The notes beneath the pieces are model-generated. The model was not told where the DNA came from. It ran no database searches and worked only from the letters and a program-made list of their open reading frames with translations. The translations under genes were made by a program, and so were the position numbers. Source: a phage. From it: 64,000 nucleotides of DNA. This document shows, piece by piece, positions 34,300 through 48,360 of the stretch (positions are counted from its first letter, which is position 1; each line of letters opens with the position of its first letter). The DNA lies in assembly GCA_020857175.1 (NCBI GenBank), contig GCA_020857175.1_3048.1; one strand, written 5' to 3'.

Positions 34300-36477
34300 T
34301 TAGGCCGCAAGGGCCTTCATAGTTTTAGCGATTTGAGAAACTTCATCATCACTTAAAGAGTTGCGATAACCGATGAAGTCGGAAACAATGCGGAATTTCT
34401 TGGTAAACTCAGCAACCATTTTATCACTGTTTTTTGAAGCATTATTTGATAATACATCAAAAAGATTAGTTACTGTCCAGATGTCATGACCAATGGTATC
34501 TTTTCCACCATTAAAATATACACCGCGCAATGAACTAACTATATTAGCGAGTCGTGTATATTCTTCAGAAACTTCATCTGTACTGAAGTACTTCATCATA
34601 AAATCTAACTCAGGATACTTGATAATTTTATCAATATATCGTTGAGCTGAACTTGAATAACCTACGTACTTATCATAATCTACATCATCAAAAGCATCTA
34701 CATATAAATCACGCAAAGTTTCAAAAATACATTGGCACTGACCGAGTTCTTTTACCTTTTTCTGTAAAAGCGGACGAATAACATAAAATTCATTAATGCC
34801 AATAAGATTAGCCATACGAATCAAAATATTCATAGATGGATGACAAAGCGATGTAGTACCATCCATAGAGAAAATATCAGAACGATGCATATACGCTACA
34901 TAACCAGTAATTTCATCTGCTTCTGACGTAAGTGTAAATAGTTCCTCTTTTTCCCATCGCCCATCTTTAATTTCAAATTTAAATGCTGTAGCAGCTTTAG
35001 GACGAGGAGCTTTACTTTTAACTACCTTTGGAATATAACTTTTAACCAAAGCTTCAATTTCTGACAAATAATGAATGTTAACTTCATCACTTTCAAACAT
35101 TGCCATAATATCAGGTAGTAAATCAATCTGCGATTCTACTTCCGGATTAATAAACAGAAGACGCTCATTGTGATGAATATTTAAAGTGTTATTAAATTCA
35201 CTATCATCTAATGCACGTGCTAATCCACGGACAATATTAACACGATTTTTAATATTATCAATAACAATATTAATTTTTGTCATATTAATACCAAACAGAC
35301 GATAACTTGATGCAACGGCTGAAGTTTCATGACTTTGCTTAATGCGTTTCAGTCGAGGGTCAAGATTTACTTCGTACACAACTCCTGCATTGCATAACTT
35401 ACTGTCAGGTTCAAACATGCTCTGCATCTTTTTATATGACAGATTTTTAGTCGTGAATTTGACTGAATTACTAATCATATAATCTCGAGCAGAATAGCCC
35501 ATTTTCATTAACTCGCGATACGTATGGCGAGGAGATGTAGATTCTTTAAATCGTTTTACATCTTCATTAAATGCTTTCTCACTGAGTTCTTTAACTCGTT
35601 CAATGATATTTTTACGAGTGCGATCATCTAGTGAAAGAGCCTCACGAGATGGAGCAATATCAAGTGAACCCATTGGAAACTTAATGTAATTCACTTCATT
35701 GCGGATGCTTAACCAGTTACGGTCTCTAATAACACCATCGATAGGATAAACAATACCGCCATAGATAGCATATAATCCGCCGCGATCTGGCCAGTATCTT
35801 TCTGGATTTACACCGTAATAGTCATCAAAATCCGGAAAATAATCAATTTCGCGATCAAGACCATTAATAATAGCCAAATCTTTGAACGGTCGCATGATAT
35901 AAGAAACTTCATAAGCAAAGTTTCTAAAGTCTTTTTCTTCAACTGGAACTACGATTTCAATACCAGTTTTATCATCTGGACCCATTTCTTTTACGAATGT
36001 AGGTTTAATTTGTGGACCATCGCCATCCATGTAAGCTACATAACCACGAATTTCACCTTTATGATACGAAGTAATACTAAATGTATCAGTATAACTAAAC
36101 GGAGATTTAGAACCTAAACCAAATCCGCCAATGAAATCGTTAGATTCAGCCTTAGATGAACTGAAGTATGAATTATACAAACCAGGAGAATTATCATCAC
36201 CTTGAATATCAAAATCACTCATACCGGGACCAAAATCTCGGCAAACAAATCGTGGATCTAAACGTCCAGGAACTTGAATGATAAATTTTTCAGGATTTCC
36301 ATTGAGTGCATGGGCATCAATCATGTTAGTAATCAATTCACGGACTACTGCGCGAATTTTGTTTGTATACAAATCAGATGACAGAATTTTAAATACTTTA
36401 GGAGATGCTGTGATGCTAAATGCTTTTGATTTAGAACCATTACCAAGAATTGTTTCTTTTTCAGTGGTGATAATCAT
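34300..36477 (-). CDS. rIIA: rIIA protein, 725 aa
   Basis: 725 aa as in T4; N-terminal ATPase-like region; adjacent to rIIB. Confidence 0.9.
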
Positions 36478-36487
36478 AATTTCCTCA

Positions 36488-36691
36488 TTAATTCATATTA
36501 CGCTTAATAACTTCAGCAACTTCTAGTAGTTCATCTTTAGTTGCGGTGTCGGATTGAATTTTATCTCTAATATCTTTAAAGCGGTTTTTAAATTCTTCGG
36601 CTTCTCCCATATCGAAAAAGCGTTGAATGATTCTATATTCTCGATGAACTGCTTTATCAAAAAGTTCTAAATTTACTTTATATGATTTCAT
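36488..36691 (-). CDS. hypothetical protein, 67 aa (rIIA.1-like)
   Basis: ATG with GAGGA SD; between 39 and rIIA as T4 rIIA.1. Confidence 0.5.
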
Positions 36692-36716
36692 TCCAATATC
36701 CTCATTTGCCCAATTA

Positions 36717-36746
36717 ATTATACCACATCCTTGTGGTAAAGTAAAC
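36717..36746 (-). promoter_or_regulatory. T4-type early promoter
   Basis: Minus strand GTTTAC (36746..36741), 18-nt spacer, TGGTATAAT (36722..36717). Confidence 0.5.
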
Positions 36747-38563
36747 TACTGGCTCATCCATTCTTTACGAAGGTCAGCATTATCTCCCATGAGCATTTCA
36801 AAAAGCTCTTTCCAGTTCTCAGGAAGTTTAACAACATCATATACTGGGTTTTGAATCATCTCACGATATTCAGATTTTTCCAAAGAGCCAAGTCCTTTAA
36901 TATAACGGATGCTATGTTTAGGTAGAGCATCTTTAGCACTCTCATATTCAGCGACTGTATAAAACCATTCTTGTTTTTTACCGACCTGAGCGATGATTAC
37001 AGGAGTTTTGACAAAGCGAATTCTTCCTTGTTCAAACAGTTCTGGCCAATTACTAAAAAATCCGAGCAGAGAAGGATAAATGCTTCCTAAACCATCATGG
37101 TCAGCATCGGTCATAATAGCAATATTATGATAATTCAAGTTTTCAGCTTTTTCACCAAGAACTAATCCAGTGATTGCGCAAATATCAAACAGTTCTTTGT
37201 TTTTAAGCATATCAGCATATGACATACCCCAACTGTTGAGAACTTTACCGCGCAATGGATAACCACCATGAAGTTCTTTATCACGAACATCAATAAGATA
37301 TCCGATAGCAGAATCACCCTCAGTCAAGAAAAGAGTAGTGTCAGCATCTTTACCGCAAAGATTCGCTTTGATATGTTTATGAACCTTAGCTTTAGAAGCC
37401 TTTTTAGCTGCTTTAGTTTCTGCTGCTTTTTCTGCTGCTAATTTACGTGCTAAAGCAGCTTCAATAATCGGCATTAAAATTGCTTCATTATTTAGAATAG
37501 CGCGTGAAATCTTTTTAGCATCAAGTTGAATATGACTACGAATTTCACCAAAAGGAGAAGTAAGTCGTTCTTTAGTTTGAGAATCAAATCGCATGTTTTT
37601 CATATCACGAACAAACATAACGATAGTCAAACATTCTTTAACGCGCGCTTTAGTTACATCAATTTTGAACTTACGTTTGATTTGTGGAATAAGGTCTTCA
37701 CAAATATCATCCATAACACAGTCAATGTGATGGCCACCATTCTTAGTGTGAATGTTATTGACGTATGTTAATTGACGAAAACCATCCGGTGAACGACCAA
37801 CCGCAATAGAACAATTTTCTTGTTCTTGAACAATAGCATGCTCATCATATTGGCGTGCATATTTCTTAAAATTGCCCTGAACCTTTTTACCATTAAAGGT
37901 AAATTGAATATCAGGATAAACTACTGCAAGTGTCTGGAGACGATCTAGTGTAATGTCAAGATAAACTTGGGACAGCTCATTAGTTTCAAATGACATAAAA
38001 TCAGGAATGAAAGTAACACGAGTTCCTTTCCATTTTCCAGGAATAGTTTCCCACGATTTATTTTCCATGCCATTTGAACAACGAACTACAATATTATTTT
38101 GACCATCACCAGTTTCACCGACAAACATCACAGAAAAAATGTTTGTCAAACTAGAACCAACACCATTCATACCGCCAGTGACGCGTTCTTTATCATCACC
38201 GAAGTTACCACCTGCTTTTGGAATAGTCCATGCAGCAACAGGACCAGGAATTTCTTCACCGGTAGGTGTTTTAACCATTGCCTGTGGAATACCGCGACCG
38301 TTATCTTCAACTGTTACCTGATTATTTTTAATGGTAACATTAATTTTATTTGCGAATTTAAACTTAGTACGAATACCTTCATCGACTGAGTTATCGATAA
38401 TTTCATCAATAAGCTTAACAAGACCAGGTACATACTGAACACTTTCCCATTTACCAAACAGAAAGCGCTCATGCATTTCATTAGCAGAAGAGCCAATGTA
38501 CATGCCACTACGCTTTTTGATATGTTCAATATCGCTCAGAATTTTAATTTCATTCTTAATCAT
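36746..38563 (-). CDS. 39: DNA topoisomerase II large subunit, fused gp39+gp60 form (605 aa), no bypass element
   Basis: From ATG 38563: MIKNEIKILSDIEHIKKRSGMYIGS... (GyrB-like ATPase + Toprim) continuing into the gp60-equivalent C-terminus in one frame. Confidence 0.9.
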   Translation of the reverse strand: MIKNEIKILSDIEHIKKRSGMYIGSSANEMHERFLFGKWESVQYVPGLVKLIDEIIDNSVDEGIRTKFKFANKINVTIKNNQVTVEDNGRGIPQAMVKTPTGEEIPGPVAAWTIPKAGGNFGDDKERVTGGMNGVGSSLTNIFSVMFVGETGDGQNNIVVRCSNGMENKSWETIPGKWKGTRVTFIPDFMSFETNELSQVYLDITLDRLQTLAVVYPDIQFTFNGKKVQGNFKKYARQYDEHAIVQEQENCSIAVGRSPDGFRQLTYVNNIHTKNGGHHIDCVMDDICEDLIPQIKRKFKIDVTKARVKECLTIVMFVRDMKNMRFDSQTKERLTSPFGEIRSHIQLDAKKISRAILNNEAILMPIIEAALARKLAAEKAAETKAAKKASKAKVHKHIKANLCGKDADTTLFLTEGDSAIGYLIDVRDKELHGGYPLRGKVLNSWGMSYADMLKNKELFDICAITGLVLGEKAENLNYHNIAIMTDADHDGLGSIYPSLLGFFSNWPELFEQGRIRFVKTPVIIAQVGKKQEWFYTVAEYESAKDALPKHSIRYIKGLGSLEKSEYREMIQNPVYDVVKLPENWKELFEMLMGDNADLRKEWMSQ

Positions 38564-38590
38564 CACTTATCCTCGTTTGGTTTCGGGAAT

Positions 38591-38616
38591 ATTATACTCC
38601 GGCATTCATAAAGCTA
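38591..38616 (-). promoter_or_regulatory. candidate middle promoter upstream of gene 39
   Basis: Minus strand TAGCTTTA MotA-box-like element, then TATAAT about 12 nt downstream. Confidence 0.35.
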
Positions 38617-38632
38617 AAGGCCCGAAGGCCTT

Positions 38633-38893
38633 TTATTTAAAACGAATAGTTGAATCCTTAAAGAACAGCCCAGAACATACTGTTCCTTCTACTTTCTGCC
38701 CGGTAGGTCCAACAGCACGAAATCCAGTATGTTGGAAATCATTTTCAGAGCAACCGAACCAGTTATATCCAGTGATTTCAATATTCGTAAAACCACTTGA
38801 TGATAAAATTTTAGTTGCATTATCAGCATCAGTACATCCTACTAAAGATACTGCTAATACTAATGCTGCGATAGAACGATTAACATATTTCAT
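38633..38893 (-). CDS. putative lipoprotein, ~86 aa
   Basis: Signal peptide with lipobox LVGC; ATG at 38893 (track start is GTG). Confidence 0.5.
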   Translation of the reverse strand: MKYVNRSIAALVLAVSLVGCTDADNATKILSSSGFTNIEITGYNWFGCSENDFQHTGFRAVGPTGQKVEGTVCSGLFFKDSTIRFK

Positions 38894-38898
38894 AATTT

Positions 38899-39270
38899 TC
38901 ACTTAAATTTAATGGCTTGAAGAAGACTAATAATTCTCAAACGGCTTCTTTCATCTTTAACTGTAAAAGAAAGAGGGTCGCCAGATTTCATAGTAATAGT
39001 GCATTCAAAATCAAAGTTTTCTGTAACTTCTTCAAAGAAGTCAAATTCTTCATCATAAATTAGAACACTACTTTGCATACTATGAAGAGTTTTTCCATCA
39101 TTTCCAGTTGCTGTACCAATCATCGTAACATTACGACCTTTCATATCTTCAACGATAAATTCGCTTGTCGATATTACAACATTAATAGAACTATTTCTAT
39201 GAATAGCAGAAAATAGAAATTTCTTTTCTTCACCTTCACGAATACGATATTTCTTACCGATTTTAAACAT
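38899..39270 (-). CDS. hypothetical protein, 123 aa
   Basis: ATG start; no recognisable motif. Confidence 0.5.
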   Translation of the reverse strand: MFKIGKKYRIREGEEKKFLFSAIHRNSSINVVISTSEFIVEDMKGRNVTMIGTATGNDGKTLHSMQSSVLIYDEEFDFFEEVTENFDFECTITMKSGDPLSFTVKDERSRLRIISLLQAIKFK

Positions 39271-39272
39271 AA

Positions 39273-39449
39273 TTACCCTTTAAGTAAGTCGTAAAAACCA
39301 CCATTTACATGCTTAGGAGCAGAAGGCCGACGAGTAGACAAACGATGACATTTAGGGCAAACATCATTTTCTCGTTCAGAAATCTTTTTAATTTTTTCAT
39401 ATTCATGCCTACAGTCTTTAGATTGGCATTTATAATCATACATTGGCAT
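39273..39449 (-). CDS. small zinc-ribbon protein, 58 aa
   Basis: Manual translation MPMYDYKCQSKDCRHEYEK...CPKCHRL with two CxxC pairs; below track cutoff. Confidence 0.45.
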   Translation of the reverse strand: MPMYDYKCQSKDCRHEYEKIKKISERENDVCPKCHRLSTRRPSAPKHVNGGFYDLLKG

Positions 39450-39451
39450 AA

Positions 39452-39883
39452 TTATTCCTTAAAATGAGCTTTCAGCATCTGATACAAAGACCATGCTTGT
39501 TCATTATTTTCAATAGTAACTTTCATGACTGGGAATTCTGTGAAATCTTCTATTTGTTCTTGCTCTTTCTCTTTCTCTTCCTGCTCTTGCTCTTCAGCTG
39601 CCTGATATGGATTTTCCACTTCATCAAAGAACACAGCTTCACTCGTTGAAAGCCAGATAAAATCTTCATCCAAAATATCTTTACCAGAAGATAACGCCAA
39701 TTTTCCACTAGATGTCACAAGTTTAGTAGGACGACCAAGATAGTCAATATCTGTAACTCTAAAAGGTTCCATACCAAGACGTCGTGCATAAATTCCGTTT
39801 TCGGTATGGTCCTTGATAAAATCTTCTTGTGCTTGTTTATTTTTAAATTGATACCATTTATTAACTTCAAATTTAATAGCCAT
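39452..39883 (-). CDS. hypothetical acidic protein, 143 aa
   Basis: ATG start; E/Q-rich linker. Confidence 0.5.
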
Positions 39884-40098
39884 TAATAAGTTTCCTTCCA
39901 GTAAGTTGTGCCATCTTCAGTAATTTCACGAAATACACCGTAAATTGGTTGTTTATCACCAACCTTTTCATACACATAAACCGAAGTCAAGTGAGTAAAC
40001 TTAACGGTATGTTCTTTTTGAACTACTACCAAATCTGGATCGAATAATACATCTTCAAATTCGTCATTAGTGCAATTCTGAACAATTTTACGTTTCAT
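39883..40098 (-). CDS. hypothetical protein, 71 aa
   Basis: ATG start; stop/start overlap. Confidence 0.45.
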
Positions 40099-40111
40099 TA
40101 CAATTTCCTCA

Positions 40112-40381
40112 TTAATTGAACAGTGGAGCGATGCGTTTCAGAAGAGTAGCAGCACCTTTAGCGAATTTTACATCATGAAAAACAGTTTCTTCTTCCGTTA
40201 CAACACGAGCTTTAATGTTTTCACAATCCCAATTTTTGCGAACAATCTTCAAAAGCTGCAGTAAATCTTTACATTCAACAATATCGATAACACATCCACG
40301 AGAATCTTCCATTATCGCACGATAACCGTAAGCCATACCATAATCGTTGAAAGATTGCTCGATGATAATTAAGTTTTCCAT
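40112..40381 (-). CDS. hypothetical protein, ~89 aa
   Basis: ATG at 40381 with GGAGAA SD; track start is TTG. Confidence 0.45.
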   Translation of the reverse strand: MENLIIIEQSFNDYGMAYGYRAIMEDSRGCVIDIVECKDLLQLLKIVRKNWDCENIKARVVTEEETVFHDVKFAKGAATLLKRIAPLFN

Positions 40382-40488
40382 TTTATTCTCCAAGTTGTTT
40401 TCTGTATCAGTAGTTGATATTGATATAGTACCATAATCAACTACTGATGTATATAGTTTTATGAAAAAATTTTAAACTTTATGCAAAT

Positions 40489-40908
40489 TTATGCTAAAGC
40501 TGCTTCGCACCATTTTTTAATTTGGAATTCAGGAACGACCATGAACTGGCCTGCAAAAACAATATTGTAGAGCTTGACACCATCTTCTACCCAACGGTCC
40601 GAAATAAAACCAGCGACTTGATTCGTTGTCCATGGAGTTCCATCTGTTGCCGCCGCAATTGTGAATTTATGGTCTTTTACAACTAAAACTGAAGAACAAA
40701 GTTTCCATTTAAATGCGCTTTCTTCTGGCTCAATGAACTGACTTGAGACATAACCAATGTTACCATCAGCGTCACGAACTTTAACCTCGTTACGACCAAA
40801 AACTGGATCACTTACAGAAAGAACTTCAACCAGCTTTCCTGCAACTTTAGAACGAGAAGCAACGGATACATATACGTAATCACCAGTAGAGAGATTTACA
40901 ATATTCAT
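40489..40908 (-). CDS. hypothetical protein, paralog family copy A, 139 aa
   Basis: Shares SRSK(V/A)AG(K/R)LVEV and (I/F)(S/T)DRWVEDG..LYNIVF.G.F.VV motifs with the adjacent 157-aa ORF. Confidence 0.55.
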   Translation of the reverse strand: MNIVNLSTGDYVYVSVASRSKVAGKLVEVLSVSDPVFGRNEVKVRDADGNIGYVSSQFIEPEESAFKWKLCSSVLVVKDHKFTIAAATDGTPWTTNQVAGFISDRWVEDGVKLYNIVFAGQFMVVPEFQIKKWCEAALA

Positions 40909-40917
40909 AATAATTCC

Positions 40918-41391
40918 TTAAGCTTTACGAGGAGAAGCATAACGAGTGATTTCAGATTCTTCAACAACCCGGAAGTCACCTAAGAATACGATATTGTAGA
41001 GATTTTCACCATCTTCAACCCATCGGTCTGTGATGAAGCCGCACATCCTATCAGTTTTACTTGGACCAGCGAAATCATCAATATAATCGAATTCTTCATC
41101 AGTTACAAATTCAACGCCTTTACACAACGCCCATTTAAATTGTGCATTAGACTCAGTGGATTCAACTTCTTCAACAGAAGCAAAATGAGAGCTAACACGA
41201 GTTTCCAGAAATTTAGGACTTACGTAAGCGTACTGAGTTTCAGTTTTTCCAGAACTAGGAATGATTCGAACTTTAACTTCTTTAACACGACCAGTACCAT
41301 TAGTACGAAGTCCTACCACTTCAACTAGACGACCTGCAGCTTTAGAACGAGATGCAGACGATACACGCTTAATTTCACCGATAGTAATCAT
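40918..41391 (-). CDS. hypothetical protein, paralog family copy B, 157 aa
   Basis: Same motifs as copy A; ATG start. Confidence 0.55.
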   Translation of the reverse strand: MITIGEIKRVSSASRSKAAGRLVEVVGLRTNGTGRVKEVKVRIIPSSGKTETQYAYVSPKFLETRVSSHFASVEEVESTESNAQFKWALCKGVEFVTDEEFDYIDDFAGPSKTDRMCGFITDRWVEDGENLYNIVFLGDFRVVEESEITRYASPRKA

Positions 41392-41467
41392 AATTTTTCT
41401 CTCTTTGTTGTTAAGATTTATACTCCCTCCGCAGGACCATTATACTCTGGCCCCAAGAGTTTGTAAA

Positions 41468-41659
41468 CTAGCTTACACGAACATTAATCACTGCGCTGCG
41501 AGGAACTACAGAGTACTCTCCAGCATGAACTACGTTCAGAAGTTCAACACCATCTTCAATCCACTGATCAGTCACCCATCCACCCACAGGATTCGCGAAT
41601 GGACGATGAATATAAACTTGCCTTACACAGCAGATCAGTTGGATCTTCAGGTTTTTCAA
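41468..41659 (-). pseudogene. truncated third copy of the paralog family (C-terminal motif only)
   Basis: Encodes ...GGWVTDQWIEDGVELLNVVHAGEYSVVP, matching only the C-terminal motif of copies A/B; overlaps another ORF. Confidence 0.35.
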
Positions 41660-41906
41660 TTTCTGTCAATAGACTAAAATCTTTTTCATAAATAATAAGC
41701 GGTGATACCATTCCATAATAGTTTCTAATTTCAATATACATCATACCGATAAGAATTCCGCTATTAACACTAATAACAGTAAAAGGATATCCACCAGTTA
41801 AACCAAGAAGTTCACAAAACTTATTATGAGCTATATTAGACAGTACCGAAAAATTCTTAATTTCATCAAATTTTTTCAATTGATAAACAGCATTATTTTT
41901 AATCAT
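41568..41906 (-). CDS. hypothetical protein, 112 aa
   Basis: ATG start; 3' end overlaps the decayed paralog remnant. Confidence 0.45.
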   Translation of the reverse strand: MIKNNAVYQLKKFDEIKNFSVLSNIAHNKFCELLGLTGGYPFTVISVNSGILIGMMYIEIRNYYGMVSPLIIYEKDFSLLTEIEKPEDPTDLLCKASLYSSSIRESCGWMGD

Positions 41907-41916
41907 AATTTTCTCT

Positions 41917-42429
41917 TTAATCTAAGGTAATAAAGCCTTTTAATTCGGCATGCGATTTGCGAAACATTACTTGATGCCCACCAATGATAACTTGATCATC
42001 TGGAACTTCATAAATCGCAATGTACATTCCACGATCTTTTAAGTCTTCACGCTCTTCTCGGGTGAACCATCTCATCATATCATATTCACTAGCGAAAGCA
42101 AAATGATATAATGAAATAAGCCACAATGGAATATAATTTTCAAATTGTGAATAATCTTTATTCCATTTAGTTTTAATAGTATCATTAGCATTTTCAACTA
42201 ATAACTTATCATCGTGTGGAATAGGAATACTTTCATGGCTTTCATAATTATCGCTATGATGATGAAATGACGATGAATTAATACCGCAAAATTTTAGCCA
42301 AGTTCGAGTTTTCATAGAATCAAACCCACGATAAGGAGTTGATTGAACGCATAACTCTTGCCTAATTTTCACTATACCACTATCATCATTTAATGCGCTA
42401 AACGATGATTCAACACGATAAATTTTCAT
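41917..42429 (-). CDS. hypothetical protein, ~170 aa
   Basis: ATG at 42429 with GAGGATAA SD downstream of the 42457..42486 promoter; longer track ORF starts upstream of promoter. Confidence 0.5.
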   Translation of the reverse strand: MKIYRVESSFSALNDDSGIVKIRQELCVQSTPYRGFDSMKTRTWLKFCGINSSSFHHHSDNYESHESIPIPHDDKLLVENANDTIKTKWNKDYSQFENYIPLWLISLYHFAFASEYDMMRWFTREEREDLKDRGMYIAIYEVPDDQVIIGGHQVMFRKSHAELKGFITLD

Positions 42430-42456
42430 TTTATTATCCTCAGTAGCTATGGTGTT

Positions 42457-42486
42457 ATAGTACCACAACTAACCGAGGAAGTAAAC
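42457..42486 (-). promoter_or_regulatory. T4-type early promoter
   Basis: Minus strand GTTTAC (42486..42481), 18-nt spacer, TGGTACTAT (42462..42457). Confidence 0.5.
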
Positions 42487-42492
42487 AACTTT

Positions 42493-43176
42493 TTATCGTT
42501 TTGTTGGAAGAGACAAAGGATCGCACTCTTCCTCTGACGGAGCATCTTCAAGACCCATAGCATATCGCAAAGCATACTTCATCATCAGGATGTCTTTCGC
42601 ACAGTCATGAATAGAATCATGCGCAACGAATCCATCTAAAGTTCCTTTTGGAAGAGGACACGTGGTCATATCACGAACAAGGAGAAGTGCTTCAATTCTG
42701 GTACGAATATCACGCTGATTCCAAAATTTACAAGGTTCTAACTTAAATGTATCAAGCTCATTCTCGGAAACGCCGTTAAGACGTTGAATATCGCGAATGA
42801 GATCGACTAAAATTGGAAAATCAAACGACATTCCACGGCACCAGCCTTGAGATTTCCAAGGATCGATATTATGCGCATTGATGTAATCATTAAATTTTGC
42901 AATACCATCGATAGTGCTTACATCTTCATCTGATGGCGCAATATTTTTTCGAGCTTCAGGAGATTGATTCTTCCACCATTCGATAGTGCTTTTAGTAAAA
43001 AGACGATGTCCTTTTTGGCTTTTTAAATCAAATTTGATTTTAATGCCACGTGAAACTAATTCATCAAATGTTTCAACGACTTCTGGATTAGGGTCAAAAG
43101 CAATTACAGCCAAATCAATAACAGCTGCTTTTTCACCGCTTCCCATTGTTTCAAAATCTATAATAAAATCAAACAT
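42493..43176 (-). CDS. dexA: exonuclease A (DnaQ-like 3'-5' exonuclease), 227 aa
   Basis: N-terminal FDFIIDFETMG (DEDD exo I motif); 227 aa as T4 DexA. Confidence 0.85.
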   Translation of the reverse strand: MFDFIIDFETMGSGEKAAVIDLAVIAFDPNPEVVETFDELVSRGIKIKFDLKSQKGHRLFTKSTIEWWKNQSPEARKNIAPSDEDVSTIDGIAKFNDYINAHNIDPWKSQGWCRGMSFDFPILVDLIRDIQRLNGVSENELDTFKLEPCKFWNQRDIRTRIEALLLVRDMTTCPLPKGTLDGFVAHDSIHDCAKDILMMKYALRYAMGLEDAPSEEECDPLSLPTKR

Positions 43177-43418
43177 TAAATTTTCCTTGCTAAATCGCGA
43201 ATTTGACCTACAGTATAATCTTGGATATAAACTTTATTAATAGGCTCATCAATAAATTTTGCCATAGATTCAATATCTTTTTGTATCTCTTCAAGACTGT
43301 ATACTATCTTTAAAGCTTTTTCGCGAATAGTAATATTTTCAGGACTAGAATTTTCCTCAATGACAGCTTTAACATTTGTCATAAGAGATTTAAACTGATG
43401 CAAACTTAATTCAATCAT
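43176..43418 (-). CDS. hypothetical protein, ~80 aa (dexA.1-like)
   Basis: ATG at 43418 with AAGGCGG SD; track start is GTG; shares LEEI..D(I/L)...DY..G(Q/E)I pattern with next ORF. Confidence 0.45.
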   Translation of the reverse strand: MIELSLHQFKSLMTNVKAVIEENSSPENITIREKALKIVYSLEEIQKDIESMAKFIDEPINKVYIQDYTVGQIRDLARKI

Positions 43419-43671
43419 TAATAACCGCCTTATAAAGATGGCTAATTTCACCTAAAACATAATCACTGATTGTGATAGTTTTCACTTCACCACAAAAGAA
43501 TTCTAACGCAATTAAATCTCGTTCAATTTCTTCTAATTGAAGCATTAACTTGCCAGATTCAATTTTTACATTTCTACGATTTTTACTATAAGCTATTTCA
43601 TAAATTTCGCTCACTTTATCTTGAAGCAGATAAAACTGGTCTTTAGTTATTTCCACGAATAGCTTCCTCAA
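43411..43671 (-). CDS. hypothetical protein, ~86 aa (start uncertain)
   Basis: Only TTG/GTG starts available; paralogous to previous ORF. Confidence 0.4.
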   Translation of the reverse strand: MRKLFVEITKDQFYLLQDKVSEIYEIAYSKNRRNVKIESGKLMLQLEEIERDLIALEFFCGEVKTITISDYVLGEISHLYKAVIND

Positions 43672-43903
43672 ATTTAATTAGTAATTTACAGACACTTTCA
43701 TCTAGTGTAATTACCGTATCTGTATTACTGTGATATGATTGTTTTTCAATTCGTTTAATTGCTAATATAGTATCACTTATAAGATAAAGCTTATGAAGGA
43801 GCTCAGCTCCTGTTACCATAACATCGAGATTATCTTGCTTATTAGTATGCTTCCTTATACCATCTATTAGACGATTTAAATATTTTGAATTGATGTTAAT
43901 CAT
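43643..43903 (-). CDS. hypothetical protein, 86 aa
   Basis: ATG start immediately downstream of dda. Confidence 0.45.
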   Translation of the reverse strand: MININSKYLNRLIDGIRKHTNKQDNLDVMVTGAELLHKLYLISDTILAIKRIEKQSYHSNTDTVITLDESVCKLLIKFEEAIRGNN

Positions 43904-43909
43904 ATAGCC

Positions 43910-45229
43910 TCACACATAAAACACATCATAACGACCACGTGTTACACCAACGTAAAGAAGTTGTTGAGCTAATTCAGCATCTGCATAATGAATACAAGGC
44001 GTATAAATGAAAGCACGGTCTACAGACATACCCTGAGCTTTATGGAATGTTGATGCAGGAAGTGCTTTCACTTTACTGAACTGTGATTTAGCATCCCAAA
44101 AATCACTCCATGGAGCTTTTCCGCCTTTGTTCCAATTTTTATAAGTTTCTGCCGTTTTACCTAAAAATAGGTTAAACTTATATAGCTCTTCATCAGATGA
44201 AATTATTTTAATCTTTTCACGATAATATTCATCATCGCCATAAGTTTCTACTGTTAAATCCCAATGACGAATTAAGTATTCTCCAGGAACACCACGAGCT
44301 TTAACAAATGATGATGTATACTCTGCTTCTATAATACGAACTAATTGTCCGTTATTAAAAATAATTTCTGACACAGGCTTTCCATCAATTTTATATGTTT
44401 TAATTAATGGTTCCTGCATTACAATAATTTCACCGACAATAAAATCTTTATCAGTTTCAAAAATCTTTTTACGAATAATGCTATTTAACTTGTCAACAGA
44501 TTTATTCGTAAATGCCATTACGCGATTTTCAAACAAATCATCTAGTGATTTGACGATTGAAAAATAATTTACCATAAAATCACGTAAAGCTGCATCACCA
44601 GTAAATCCACGTACTCCATGCCCGTCAACAACTTTATCATAAATCCACTTACCGTTGCGAACATCAGTAGCTACATCAATAATAGGAGCATTACTGCGTT
44701 TAACTTCAGTAAGTTCACACTGATAAAAATCTTTGTGTGTAAAGAATGGACTGATATAAGCAGTATTTTCTCCTGGATCAACAGGTCTAATTTGCTTATT
44801 ATCACCTATTCCAATTATAGTACACCAAGGTGGAATAGTTGAAAGCAGAATTTTAAATAGCTTTCTATCATACATTGACACTTCGTCGCAGATTAATACC
44901 CTGCATTTAGCTAAATCTGGTACTTCCTTCTGTTCAAAAAGAACGTTTTCTTCATACGTAACTGGGTTAATTTTAAGAATACTGTGAATAGTACTCGCTT
45001 CTTTCCCCGACAGTTTTGAAAGAATCTTTTTAGCTGCATGTGTAGGAGCTGCCAAAATGATACCAGTTTCGCCTGTTGATATTAAAGCTTCAATGATGAA
45101 CTTAGTAAGAGTAGTCTTACCAGTACCAGCAGGTCCATTAATAGTTACATGATGTTTCTTTTCTTTAATAGCCCTCATAACGATGTTAAAGGCATTTTTC
45201 TGGCCTTCGGTCAAATCATCAAATGTCAT
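43910..45229 (-). CDS. dda: Dda SF1B DNA helicase, 439 aa
   Basis: Walker A GPAGTGKTT, DEVSM Walker B; 439 aa as T4 Dda. Confidence 0.95.
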   Translation of the reverse strand: MTFDDLTEGQKNAFNIVMRAIKEKKHHVTINGPAGTGKTTLTKFIIEALISTGETGIILAAPTHAAKKILSKLSGKEASTIHSILKINPVTYEENVLFEQKEVPDLAKCRVLICDEVSMYDRKLFKILLSTIPPWCTIIGIGDNKQIRPVDPGENTAYISPFFTHKDFYQCELTEVKRSNAPIIDVATDVRNGKWIYDKVVDGHGVRGFTGDAALRDFMVNYFSIVKSLDDLFENRVMAFTNKSVDKLNSIIRKKIFETDKDFIVGEIIVMQEPLIKTYKIDGKPVSEIIFNNGQLVRIIEAEYTSSFVKARGVPGEYLIRHWDLTVETYGDDEYYREKIKIISSDEELYKFNLFLGKTAETYKNWNKGGKAPWSDFWDAKSQFSKVKALPASTFHKAQGMSVDRAFIYTPCIHYADAELAQQLLYVGVTRGRYDVFYV

Positions 45230-45537
45230 CGTAAATTCCCTGCAATTGGTATACTAACAATACGCCCAGTATCTAAAATTCGCTGATATAATCTTTGTGT
45301 GTCTACGTCAGGCTTAACATGTTTAACTTCTATTTTATTAAACCAAAACTTGCGTGGAGTTTCAACTAATCTTGGAATTCCCTTACCTAAAGCTAATCGA
45401 TACTGCTCTTTAAGAGTAGTAAATACTTTATCAGCAATATTCCATTCAAAAAATACAGCAGGACGATGTTCATCAAGCGGAACTGGCGCCGTAAATCCGT
45501 CTTTGTCTCGGTAAACTATCGCATATACATAAACCAT
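45226..45537 (-). CDS. hypothetical protein, 103 aa (dda.1-like)
   Basis: ATG start; stop overlaps dda start. Confidence 0.5.
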   Translation of the reverse strand: MVYVYAIVYRDKDGFTAPVPLDEHRPAVFFEWNIADKVFTTLKEQYRLALGKGIPRLVETPRKFWFNKIEVKHVKPDVDTQRLYQRILDTGRIVSIPIAGNLR

Positions 45538-45538
45538 A

Positions 45539-46285
45539 TTATCCTCGGATAAGTTTAAAAATTGAACAATTTAGCGGATATCCTCTTTTCAGTTTAAGTT
45601 TATCAATAAAAGACAAGTTTTGATACCGCTCTACACCTTGAATAATTTTATCACACATATCATATTGCATTTCTGCCTCTGACAACTTTTTCACAATTTT
45701 CCAATCCGAGCCTTTAAGAAGAACGTTCAATTTAACAACTTCAGCGCCTTCTGCTATGTGAGAACCATCAATACGAGCTTTAAGTGCTATAATCCTTAGC
45801 TTAATGTCAGAGGTCTGTTTTGATTTAGAAAGCTGAGAAATGTGTTCAATTCGGTTTTCACGTTTTTTCTGTATAGCTTTAATTTGATTATAAGTCTTTT
45901 TGATTTTAGCCCATTTCTTTTCATCTAAATTTAGTTTATGAACTTTTTTCGCAGATGAACGACCAATTCGCAAAGCAAATAAATCACGCTTTTCAATCAA
46001 CTCCTCTAAAGTATAATCAGAACGAAATGTATTATACTTTTTCTTTACTGCAATAACATTCCCTTTAATGTATCCAACGTTATTATCAAAACGTTCTAAT
46101 GATAATTTCTCTCCTTCAATACGATTATCAAAAGGTTCTCCTGAATAGGCACAAACTTTTTGTTCTAAAATATTCTTAATATAATTGAAGTCTAAGTTAA
46201 AATCTTTAGAACGTCTTTTTGCAGATGCCTGAGTATGCTCTAGACGACGTTTAATTTTACGAATTTGGTTATTAGACAGCTTCAT
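45539..46285 (-). CDS. Srd-like protein (positional equivalent of T4 srd), 248 aa, with degenerate HNH-like N-terminal motif
   Basis: Position between dda.1 and modA; N-terminus CAYSGEPF...LSLERFDNNVGYIKGNVIAV resembles small HNH endonuclease motifs but lacks the zinc-binding Cys pairs. Confidence 0.5.
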   Translation of the reverse strand: MKLSNNQIRKIKRRLEHTQASAKRRSKDFNLDFNYIKNILEQKVCAYSGEPFDNRIEGEKLSLERFDNNVGYIKGNVIAVKKKYNTFRSDYTLEELIEKRDLFALRIGRSSAKKVHKLNLDEKKWAKIKKTYNQIKAIQKKRENRIEHISQLSKSKQTSDIKLRIIALKARIDGSHIAEGAEVVKLNVLLKGSDWKIVKKLSEAEMQYDMCDKIIQGVERYQNLSFIDKLKLKRGYPLNCSIFKLIRG

Positions 46286-46408: not shown

Positions 46409-47011
46409 TTATAGATTAAATCCTTCAAAATCAAGAGTATAGATAGTGTATGTTGAATACTTTTTGTACTCATATCTATCTGCAATTCTAAATACACTTC
46501 CAGCTGGTATCATTACTTCTTGTTCATCTGAAACTAATTCCATATTACGATAACGATGGCTATCCGGAAACTTAAAGTTTGGATTGTATTCTTTACAACG
46601 TAGAGCTTTTATAGCATACTCCTGGAAATTGAATACCATAGGAGCTTTGAATTCAAAAATAACTTGTGTGTTATACTCTAAACCGGAAGCAAAATGTAGA
46701 GCTATATTTTTATCATATGAAGCTGATACGACTTTATCAAATGTAATAATATCAATTCCTTGATTTAATACTTGCTTAGTCTCAGCTGGAACACCTCTCC
46801 AAAGAGGTTTATCGTTTGGTTCCAAACGAGATTTGATTATTTCATTTAACCAAGTATGGTCATCTGGTTTATTAGTAATACAATGAATTAAAAGTTCAAT
46901 TTCAGATAAATTAAACCCTTCAGAAAGTAATTCTTCACGAATAGAAGCACGCACCGATGCATCCATTGATTTTATTTTAAAATCTTTTAGTTGCATTACT
47001 GAGTATTTCAT
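46409..47011 (-). CDS. modA: ADP-ribosyltransferase ModA, 200 aa
   Basis: R (LWRG), S-x-S (SAS), E-x-E (EQEVMIP) ART signature; 200 aa as T4 ModA. Confidence 0.8.
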   Translation of the reverse strand: MKYSVMQLKDFKIKSMDASVRASIREELLSEGFNLSEIELLIHCITNKPDDHTWLNEIIKSRLEPNDKPLWRGVPAETKQVLNQGIDIITFDKVVSASYDKNIALHFASGLEYNTQVIFEFKAPMVFNFQEYAIKALRCKEYNPNFKFPDSHRYRNMELVSDEQEVMIPAGSVFRIADRYEYKKYSTYTIYTLDFEGFNL

Positions 47012-47630
47012 TCAACTACCTCAATATCATAAACTTTAAATGTTCCAAATGAATCGTGTAATTTTTCTTTTGAAATAGAAGTTATTCTATACTTTCCAAT
47101 TGGAATCATCCATTCTTGTTCACGCACAATCATCATTAAGTTATCAGTACGCTCTGAATCTAGCCCATCAGTATCTTCATACGTGTACTTAAACTCAGTA
47201 TTAGGAGAAGAAAGTATAATATCGCTGATATGGTCAGAATAATTAAAAGCTTTATCAGTTTTTAAGCGAAATATTATTTCAGTGAAATACTCAACATAAG
47301 AAAAACCACATGCTGTGTGCAAACTAGTAGTAAATGAATCTACCCTATTCGTTGAAAACACTTCTCCAACTTGTAAATCTTTAATGAGTTCTTTTGTCGA
47401 TTTTGATATACCACGATATAACTGATAAGGTGATTTAGTTAAATGCTTTTTAACGATTTTATTCAACTGCCGATGAAGAGCTTCATTCTTTTTAGCTTCC
47501 ATACATTGCCAAAGAATTGACTGCTCAAAGTCAGTAAATTTTTCACAGACTTTTTATACATATCATATTGAAAATCAACGCTTTCAGCTTTTATAGATAA
47601 CTGTTCAACATCTGCAAGATTAATAATCAT
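47008..47630 (-). pseudogene. modB: ADP-ribosyltransferase ModB, reading frame interrupted by apparent single-base deletion near 47499
   Basis: SD-preceded ATG at 47630 opens a 52-codon frame; the ART-domain ORF (47008..47502; YRG, STS, EQEWMIP) is in another frame with no SD; restoring one G at tgg|gaa gives 207 aa, the T4 ModB length. Confidence 0.5.
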
Positions 47631-47888: not shown

Positions 47889-48360
47889 CTAGCGATAAAA
47901 ACCAAATTGACGATTAGTTTCAATAATCTTTCTTTCTTCTTCGGACATTCTCCAACGTAGTCCAACATCAAAATGAGCCCAGACCATCTTAACAAATGCA
48001 TTTATATCTTTAATATCTTCAATAATGAATGTTTTACTTTTAGAAGGTTGACTCACTAATTTAACTTTATCATCTTCAAACAGGTCAAAAAGACCATATT
48101 CATGAGCTCTTTTATAGCCTTTAATAGTTAAAGCTTCAGAAGAAGAAAACGGTGAATCTGTATTCTGCAAAATATCTTCAGTATGCTTTATAATTAGAAT
48201 AACATTTTCTGGATATTTTCTTTCTTTTATATCTTTAATTAAAAAATCCGGATTTTCTGCTAAAGGAATAATTAATGAGCATTTTTTTACCAAGAGTATT
48301 TACTGATTTACCTTCTTTAGACATGAATTCTACTGAATAATGTTTTGCTACTTCAATCAT
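47889..48360 (-). pseudogene. hypothetical gene (~158 codons) interrupted by frameshift at an A7 tract (plus-strand T7 at 48282..48288)
   Basis: ATG at 48360 opens a frame ([12 protein letters not shown]...GKK) that terminates shortly after the homopolymer; the long downstream frame (KKCSLIIPLAENPDF...) has only a TTG start. Confidence 0.4.

Follow-up and report, generated by a model that had tools for sequence, protein, structure and literature searches.

The motB, motB-like and motB.1 genes of a T4-like phage, with a one-base break in motB.1

MotB and its described relatives

The best studied relative of the locus analysed here is MotB of phage T4 (PF17613; PHROG 1671), a protein whose binding to DNA, whether unmodified or carrying glucosyl-hydroxymethyl-cytosine, is tight and not sequence-specific; H-NS and StpA co-purify with it, and it raises burst size about 2-fold (PMC6070864). 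T4 MotB also alters the DNase I footprint of H-NS and up-regulates 75 host genes, of which roughly one third belong to the H-NS regulon (PMC7827196). DNA binding, overexpression toxicity and the effect on H-NS are known for the T4 protein only (PMC6070864, PMC7827196). MotB and MotB.1 have the same C-terminal domain and different N-terminal domains (Patterson-West et al. 2021, PMC7827196), and a duplication probably gave rise to one of the two genes from the other; three classes of N-terminal domain have been recognized among MotB homologues, and RB69 carries two copies of motB, motB.1 and a 29-aa peptide made up of the C-terminal domain only (PMC7827196). The N-terminal domain of MotB.1 (T4 residues 1-82), described by Kim et al. 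2025, is predicted to be LSm-like, and MotB.1 was without effect on the gene 41 reporter used by these authors (PMC12152347). The closest known systems also include the tandem Tudor and tandem KOW readers of chromatin and transcription (53BP1, the TTD of UHRF1, the SAWADEE domain of SHH1 and KOW6-7 of Spt5). DNA compaction driven by MotB has reportedly been described by Son et al. in 2021 (NAR), whose protein we take to be MotB.

The motB cluster of the window

The window (the whole 64-kb stretch of phage DNA that was analysed) belongs, judging from sequence identity, to an RB3/Sf22-type Tequatrovirus: positions 36000-46000 are 96-97% identical to Tequatrovirus genomes of that type (S1P5QW, FriedrichZschokke, ESh18, RB3/5/6/7/27). 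On its minus strand the genes run in the order dda, three small ORFs, dexA, motB.2, motB.1, motB, motB-like, an 89-aa ORF, cef, goF, 39.2, a 123-aa ORF, 39.1 and gene 39. This order is the same as in the annotated genomes of RB6 and S1P5QW and parallel to that of T4, and the cluster lies in the dispensable early region (dda-dexA-motB.2-motB.1-motB-...-cef-goF-39), where MotB-family genes of Tevenvirinae are placed between dexA/motB.2/motB.1 and cef/goF/39. A hidden Markov model of the C-terminal domain, run with filters off on the six-frame translation of the whole 64 kb, detected exactly three copies (E = 4.7e-40, 6e-40 and 3.7e-24); no fourth copy was found in that translation, where nothing else fell below E = 0.8. 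We hold it to be highly probable that the locus is the already described motB/motB-like/motB.1 early gene cluster of T4-like phages, encoding three proteins built around one C-terminal beta-barrel. By extension from T4 MotB, these would be small DNA-binding proteins with a common C-terminal domain. At the end of the gene order, the topoisomerase gene 39 (36746-38566, minus strand) is one unsplit ORF of 605 aa, as in RB3 and S1P5QW; the T4-specific gene 39/60 split is absent, and so is mobA.

A preliminary description of this DNA, made from the window alone, had reported two adjacent related ORFs of 139 and 157 aa within 40489-41659 and a third fragment bearing only their C-terminal motif at 41468-41659, overlapped by another ORF. 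All of these were recovered on the minus strand, the 139-aa and 157-aa ORFs at 40489-40908 and 40918-41391 and the overlapping frame as a 112-aa ORF at 41568-41906. Pairwise alignment of the three copies gave significant similarity for each pair. The two complete ORFs align end to end over both domains in BLASTP (40% identity, E = 1e-29), the alignment taking in the SRSK(V/A)AG(K/R)LVEV and DRWVEDG..LYNIVF motifs, and each of them is matched by the fragment over its final 32-42 residues (E = 1e-12 and 8e-10). These alignments and the restriction of the domain to three copies show that the observation is genuine, in the right place and well outside what chance would give. What had been read as an uncharacterised, fast-evolving locus is nonetheless the motB/motB.1 module. 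Papers of 2021 and 2025 had already described the paralogy and the sharing of domains in this module, so that the finding is already known; nor can its function be called unknown, T4 MotB having been studied experimentally (PMC6070864, PMC7827196).

The 157-aa ORF (40918..41391, minus strand) is the motB orthologue, as indicated by its full-length match to Pfam PF17613 ('Modifier of transcription'; 8.5e-40, 136.7 bits, against a curated gathering score of 25 bits for membership), by synteny and by an AlphaFold2 model. It occupies the motB position of T4, RB6 and Aplg8, in the same slot downstream of motB.1, and belongs with T4 MotB to one family over its full length, with the same two-barrel architecture, a variable linker and the SRSKAAG, EVKVR, FKW and D-W-VEDG-LYN-VF motifs in common. 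Identity to T4 MotB is nevertheless only 45% (E = 1e-46), and the MotB of RB69 is closer (84%). Directly upstream of motB, at 41439..41467 on the minus strand, lies an early-promoter-like site (TTTACA, 17 nt, TATAAT) that agrees with the consensus at 11 of 12 positions, a consensus match only, and that is kept in the alignment with T4, ESh18 and Aplg8. Between this site and the motB ribosome-binding site, the window has a 4-nt insertion at 41427-41430 relative to S1P5QW, ESh18 and T4, a tandem duplication reading CTCC on the plus and GGAG on the minus strand.

The 139-aa ORF (40489..40908, minus strand) is a motB-like paralogue that matches both PF17613 (6.4e-20, 72.1 bits, cut-off 25) and phrog_1671 (9.8e-51). 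It is 37% identical to T4 MotB and 100% identical to RB6_010, and it keeps every invariant MotB position while lacking the acidic linker between the domains. Its start, preceded by an AAGGA ribosome-binding site, is separated from the stop codon of motB by 9 nt; given this short distance, the gene is probably co-transcribed with motB from the early-promoter-like site. T4 lacks this second, linker-less copy. RB69, on the other hand, has a tandem second motB copy beside motB and motB.1, as in the window, and the annotation of Aplg8 ties the 139-aa type to RB69ORF010c. The distribution of the gene is restricted: a tblastn search with the 139-aa ORF returned MotB-family matches in 778 phage records, only 208 of which contain an orthologue of at least 80% identity, the remainder, T4 included, having MotB itself only. 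The gap that separates the 139-aa gene from the 89-aa ORF contains, at about 40405-40447, an inverted repeat with perfect 13-bp arms (ATCAGTAGTTGAT, 17 nt, ATCAACTACTGAT, minus strand), which a terminator scan missed because no T-run follows the repeat.

A different arrangement is seen in metagenomic T4-like contigs, where a single MotB gene combines a MotB-type N-terminal domain and linker with a C-terminal domain of the 139-aa type. Three of these fused genes (P0095, at L006 3001-3492, L007 2199-2690 and L008 37-528) have a T4-type N-terminal domain and one (P0036, at L009 1373-1894) has the N-terminal domain type of RB69 and the window. The switch between domains falls at the conserved FKWKL motif, and the fused gene is flanked by motB.1 on one side and the 89-aa ORF/cef on the other, a spot that holds two genes in the window. 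This sequence arrangement suggests recombination between tandem motB copies.

Two sets of neighbouring genes were also considered. MotB.2 (41917-42429, minus strand) was rejected as a family member: it matches neither PF17613 nor the C-terminal-domain HMM and belongs instead with PHROG 1106 and Pfam PF26820. The window MotB.2 itself has no Pfam match in the local copy of the database, related contigs carry PF26820 (Phage_T4_Y00F), and T4 MotB.2 has a weak match to the SRA (SET and RING associated) Pfam family, at E = 0.083 and well under the cut-off. Between dda and dexA, three small tandem ORFs on the minus strand (43176-43451, 43411-43671 and 43643-43903) match phrog_5263 (E = 9e-4, 1.6e-8 and 1.8e-5) and, like RB6_015-017, correspond to the dexA.1/dexA.2 type with one additional ORF; related contigs have two small dda-dexA genes, of 86 and 81 aa in L006, each of which matches Pfam PF26837. 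By their profile matches, these ORFs are a second tandem paralogue set adjoining the motB cluster.

Domain structure and proposed mechanism

The 157-aa MotB was modelled with AlphaFold2 from an alignment of 25 sequences (mean pLDDT 79), and the model comprises two all-beta domains (residues 1-62 and 85-152) on either side of a disordered acidic linker (residues 65-82), and the length of this linker is highly variable across MotB homologues. The C-terminal domain modelled alone reached a pLDDT of 94.8. The two-domain structure of MotB is thus seen in the 157-aa protein from its model and in the 139-aa protein from an alignment that covers both domains. A Foldseek search with the full-length model retrieved tandem-Tudor and tandem-KOW proteins (E ~4e-3, probability ~1.0), and a PDB sequence search with MotB gave no match at E <= 1. 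In earlier work the N-terminal domain was assigned to KOW and an OB-fold was suggested for the C-terminal domain from HHpred (PMC7827196). The model agrees with the former assignment, the N-terminal domain being an SH3/KOW-like barrel. The C-terminal domain, in contrast, looks like a Tudor/SH3-like barrel and not an OB-fold, which is a prediction of fold class and not a proof; the structural similarity to OB-fold proteins that a cold-shock-like domain (SCOPe b.40.4.5) calls for failed to appear. A Tudor/SH3-like C-terminal barrel would make MotB a tandem-barrel protein. The shared barrel spans about 50-75 residues around a D-x-W-[VI]-E-x-G-x-x-L-x-N-V-V core, with D, W, E, G, L, N, V and V invariant across the three protein classes.

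In the 157-aa MotB the common C-terminal domain is preceded by a barrel of the KOW/SH3-like kind and a disordered acidic linker, the 139-aa paralogue possesses both MotB barrels and no linker, and MotB.1 has an unrelated N-terminal barrel (predicted to be LSm-like, of the GoF/Frd.2 type) joined to the common C-terminal domain, with the extra base after codon 96 putting its two domains in separate frames. The analysis itself thus establishes the homology, the domain architecture, the synteny and the frameshift and, from the model, the fold class of the common domain; the mechanism that we propose goes further. By analogy with T4 MotB, which is 45% identical, the proteins of the cluster would be early and abundant and would bind DNA without sequence specificity, both that of the host and the glucosyl-hydroxymethyl-cytosine DNA of the phage. 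They would alter the seating of H-NS on DNA, part of the H-NS regulon would be de-repressed and burst size would be roughly doubled. For the 157-aa orthologue we infer DNA binding and H-NS antagonism from the T4 protein; the 139-aa paralogue, which keeps every invariant MotB position, probably has the same activity. The most economical reading of the common C-terminal barrel would have it act as a DNA- or partner-binding module mounted on different N-terminal domains.

The one-base break in motB.1

The third member of the cluster is motB.1, which lies directly upstream of motB as it does in T4 and which, in alignment with four relatives, occupies 439 nt of the window (41468..41906, minus strand), where a single inserted base interrupts its reading frame. 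The insertion (41618..41619) changes A to AA on the minus strand, or T to TT on the plus strand, after codon 96, the window reading GGCAAGTTT where relatives read GGCAGTTT; the extra base is unique to the window in alignment with ESh18, Aplg8 and T4, and also with respect to S1P5QW. Removal of one A yields a 145-aa MotB.1 that is 142/145 identical to that of RB6, aligns with residues 1-142 of T4 MotB.1 and matches phrog_2333 over residues 1-144 (1.7e-66) and phrog_1671 over residues 80-141. Because deleting this A restores MotB.1, the 112-aa ORF at 41568..41906 can be identified as the first 96 codons of motB.1, encoding the whole N-terminal domain and linker, followed by 16 out-of-frame residues and a stop. 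The 3' part (41468..41623, minus strand), in the +1 frame, encodes the MotB-type C-terminal domain (residues 95-145) and the stop codon; residues 95-145 of S1P5QW MotB.1 align to it by tblastn (41623-41471, 94% identity), and against PF17613 it scores 1.9e-08 and 34.8 bits (cut-off 25) at profile positions 119-153 only. It is this part, opened from a TTG as a 63-aa ORF (41468-41659, minus strand), that had been reported as the third fragment. The sequence as written encodes just the MotB.1 N-terminal domain and a 16-residue nonsense tail.

The repaired protein has the architecture of MotB.1 (PHROG 2333; 'Category 2' of Patterson-West et al. 2021; the LSm-like family of Kim et al. 2025), namely a distinct N-terminal domain and a MotB-type C-terminal domain, both the same as those of T4 MotB.1. 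The single uninterrupted frame of about 143-164 codons, on the other hand, is whole in T4 and split in the window into ORFs of 112 and 63 aa by an insertion found in no other record, and this one-base break is what is specific to the window. The gene is intact in ESh18, Aplg8, T4, RB6 and S1P5QW, and at least 80% of the length of MotB.1 is present in 343 phage records; in most of the other 426 matching records only the linker and C-terminal domain are aligned, presumably joined there to another N-terminal domain. The 82-residue N-terminal domain has no significant BLASTP similarity to MotB or to the GoF of the window, in agreement with the published view that the relationship is visible only at the level of profiles or structures.

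Two explanations of the break survive, with about equal odds, and we tentatively give each slightly less than an even chance. The first is a sequencing or assembly error, the actual phage having an intact 145-aa MotB.1 and nothing decayed; the second is a real and recent loss of function that leaves a truncated MotB.1 with only the LSm-like domain and a C-terminal part that is a very young pseudogene remnant. The rarity of the allele speaks for an error and against a real mutation. It occurs in none of the 128 phage records that match 121 nt around the site (best match 98.3%, with no full-length 100% match), and an exact 26-mer across the insertion is absent from IMG/VR. An error would also fit the near-identity to RB6 MotB.1 that removal of a single base restores, even though the site is merely A to AA and contains no long homopolymer. 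On the side of a real mutation stands the sequence as given, together with the fact that motB.1, modB and their neighbours in this region are non-essential in the laboratory. Amber and deletion mutants of T4 motB.1 plate and burst like the wild type, and the deletion mutant has the latent period of the wild type (PMC12152347); because T4 can do without motB.1, a phage with a real null allele would be viable, a point that also weighs against invoking an error.

The frames of other genes bear on both explanations. When 75 complete annotated coding sequences of S1P5QW were translated and compared with the window, two more genes proved to be split between frames. In modB (47011-47630, minus strand) a C has been lost (CC to C) at about 47551 with respect to S1P5QW, so that the frame changes at residue 27, residues 1-27 being read in one and residues 27-207 in a second; within the 101 nt that were compared, the deletion recurs in one other record, phage a15 (OQ067373.1), and is missing from 408 others. 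In the 156-aa gene downstream of modB (47892-48360, minus strand), T6 has become T7 at about 48288, an allele with no other carrier among 496 matching phage records. That 7 kb of the window should contain two further one-base frame breaks, each in a short homopolymer, favours an error, whereas the presence of the modB deletion in an independent record and the intact frames of the other genes compared across about 48 kb argue against one; that the modB break is found in a second phage favours real mutation. As a set, three short homopolymers in 7 kb that have each gained or lost one base fit errors and real null alleles in a dispensable region equally well.

Codon differences lend some support to a real loss of function, repaired motB.1 differing from ESh18/RB6 and S1P5QW by 3-4 non-synonymous and 1-2 synonymous codons, as opposed to 193 synonymous and 51 non-synonymous codon differences between the neighbouring genes and S1P5QW. 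These counts, however, are too small to indicate relaxed selection or to tell error from real mutation, the intact 157-aa motB itself having 3 synonymous and 3 non-synonymous differences, and the substitutions in repaired MotB.1 are not all private to it, because the best database MotB.1 differs by just 2 residues. The part of motB.1 downstream of the break is moreover perfectly conserved save for one base, and any decay must therefore be minimal.

A stronger version of real mutation, which we consider improbable, holds that all three breaks, in motB.1, in modB and in the gene that follows modB, were selected as this lineage shed dispensable early host-takeover proteins. If so, the proteins shed might, for instance, be costly to the phage on its host or be sensed by host defence. 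On this view motB.1 would have become a natural allele that separates the two domains, with the LSm-like domain left without the shared Tudor-like domain that would normally tether MotB.1 to DNA or to H-NS.

The preliminary description had instead proposed duplication and decay, and part of this stands: the genes do form a tandem paralogue family, and its third member is disrupted here. That member, however, is the conserved motB.1 and not an old eroded duplicate, and the ORF said to overlap the fragment is motB.1's own N-terminal part, set apart from it by one inserted base. We find very little room for an eroded third MotB copy that has lost its N-terminal half and been overprinted by an unrelated ORF. 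Within the window alone only the C-terminal motif is recognizable, and the 82 residues upstream have no BLASTP similarity to MotB, as such a copy would suggest. Yet the upstream ORF and the fragment are one continuous conserved gene in relatives, the N-terminal domain is a defined family in its own right (phrog_2333, described in PMC12152347), and the intact motB.1 orthologues refute the erosion of a duplicate. The same description had allowed that its reading would fail if the fragment belonged to a differently annotated gene, which is nearly what was found, the fragment being the C-terminal domain of MotB.1. Nor does the window have a counterpart to the free-standing 29-aa C-terminal-domain peptide of RB69 (PMC7827196), the isolated piece being a product of the frameshift. 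Programmed +1 ribosomal frameshifting, finally, is the least credible explanation: about 55 nt are common to both frames, and ribosomes that slipped by +1 after codon 96 would make the complete protein, but AAG GCA AGT TTA holds no slippery or hungry-codon motif, and the shift site has no conservation, because all relatives encode MotB.1 in a single frame.

The main value of this analysis lies in a correction, in that the locus is an ordinary motB/motB.1 module and not an uncharacterised, fast-decaying gene family; and the genome in the window may carry a natural null allele of motB.1.
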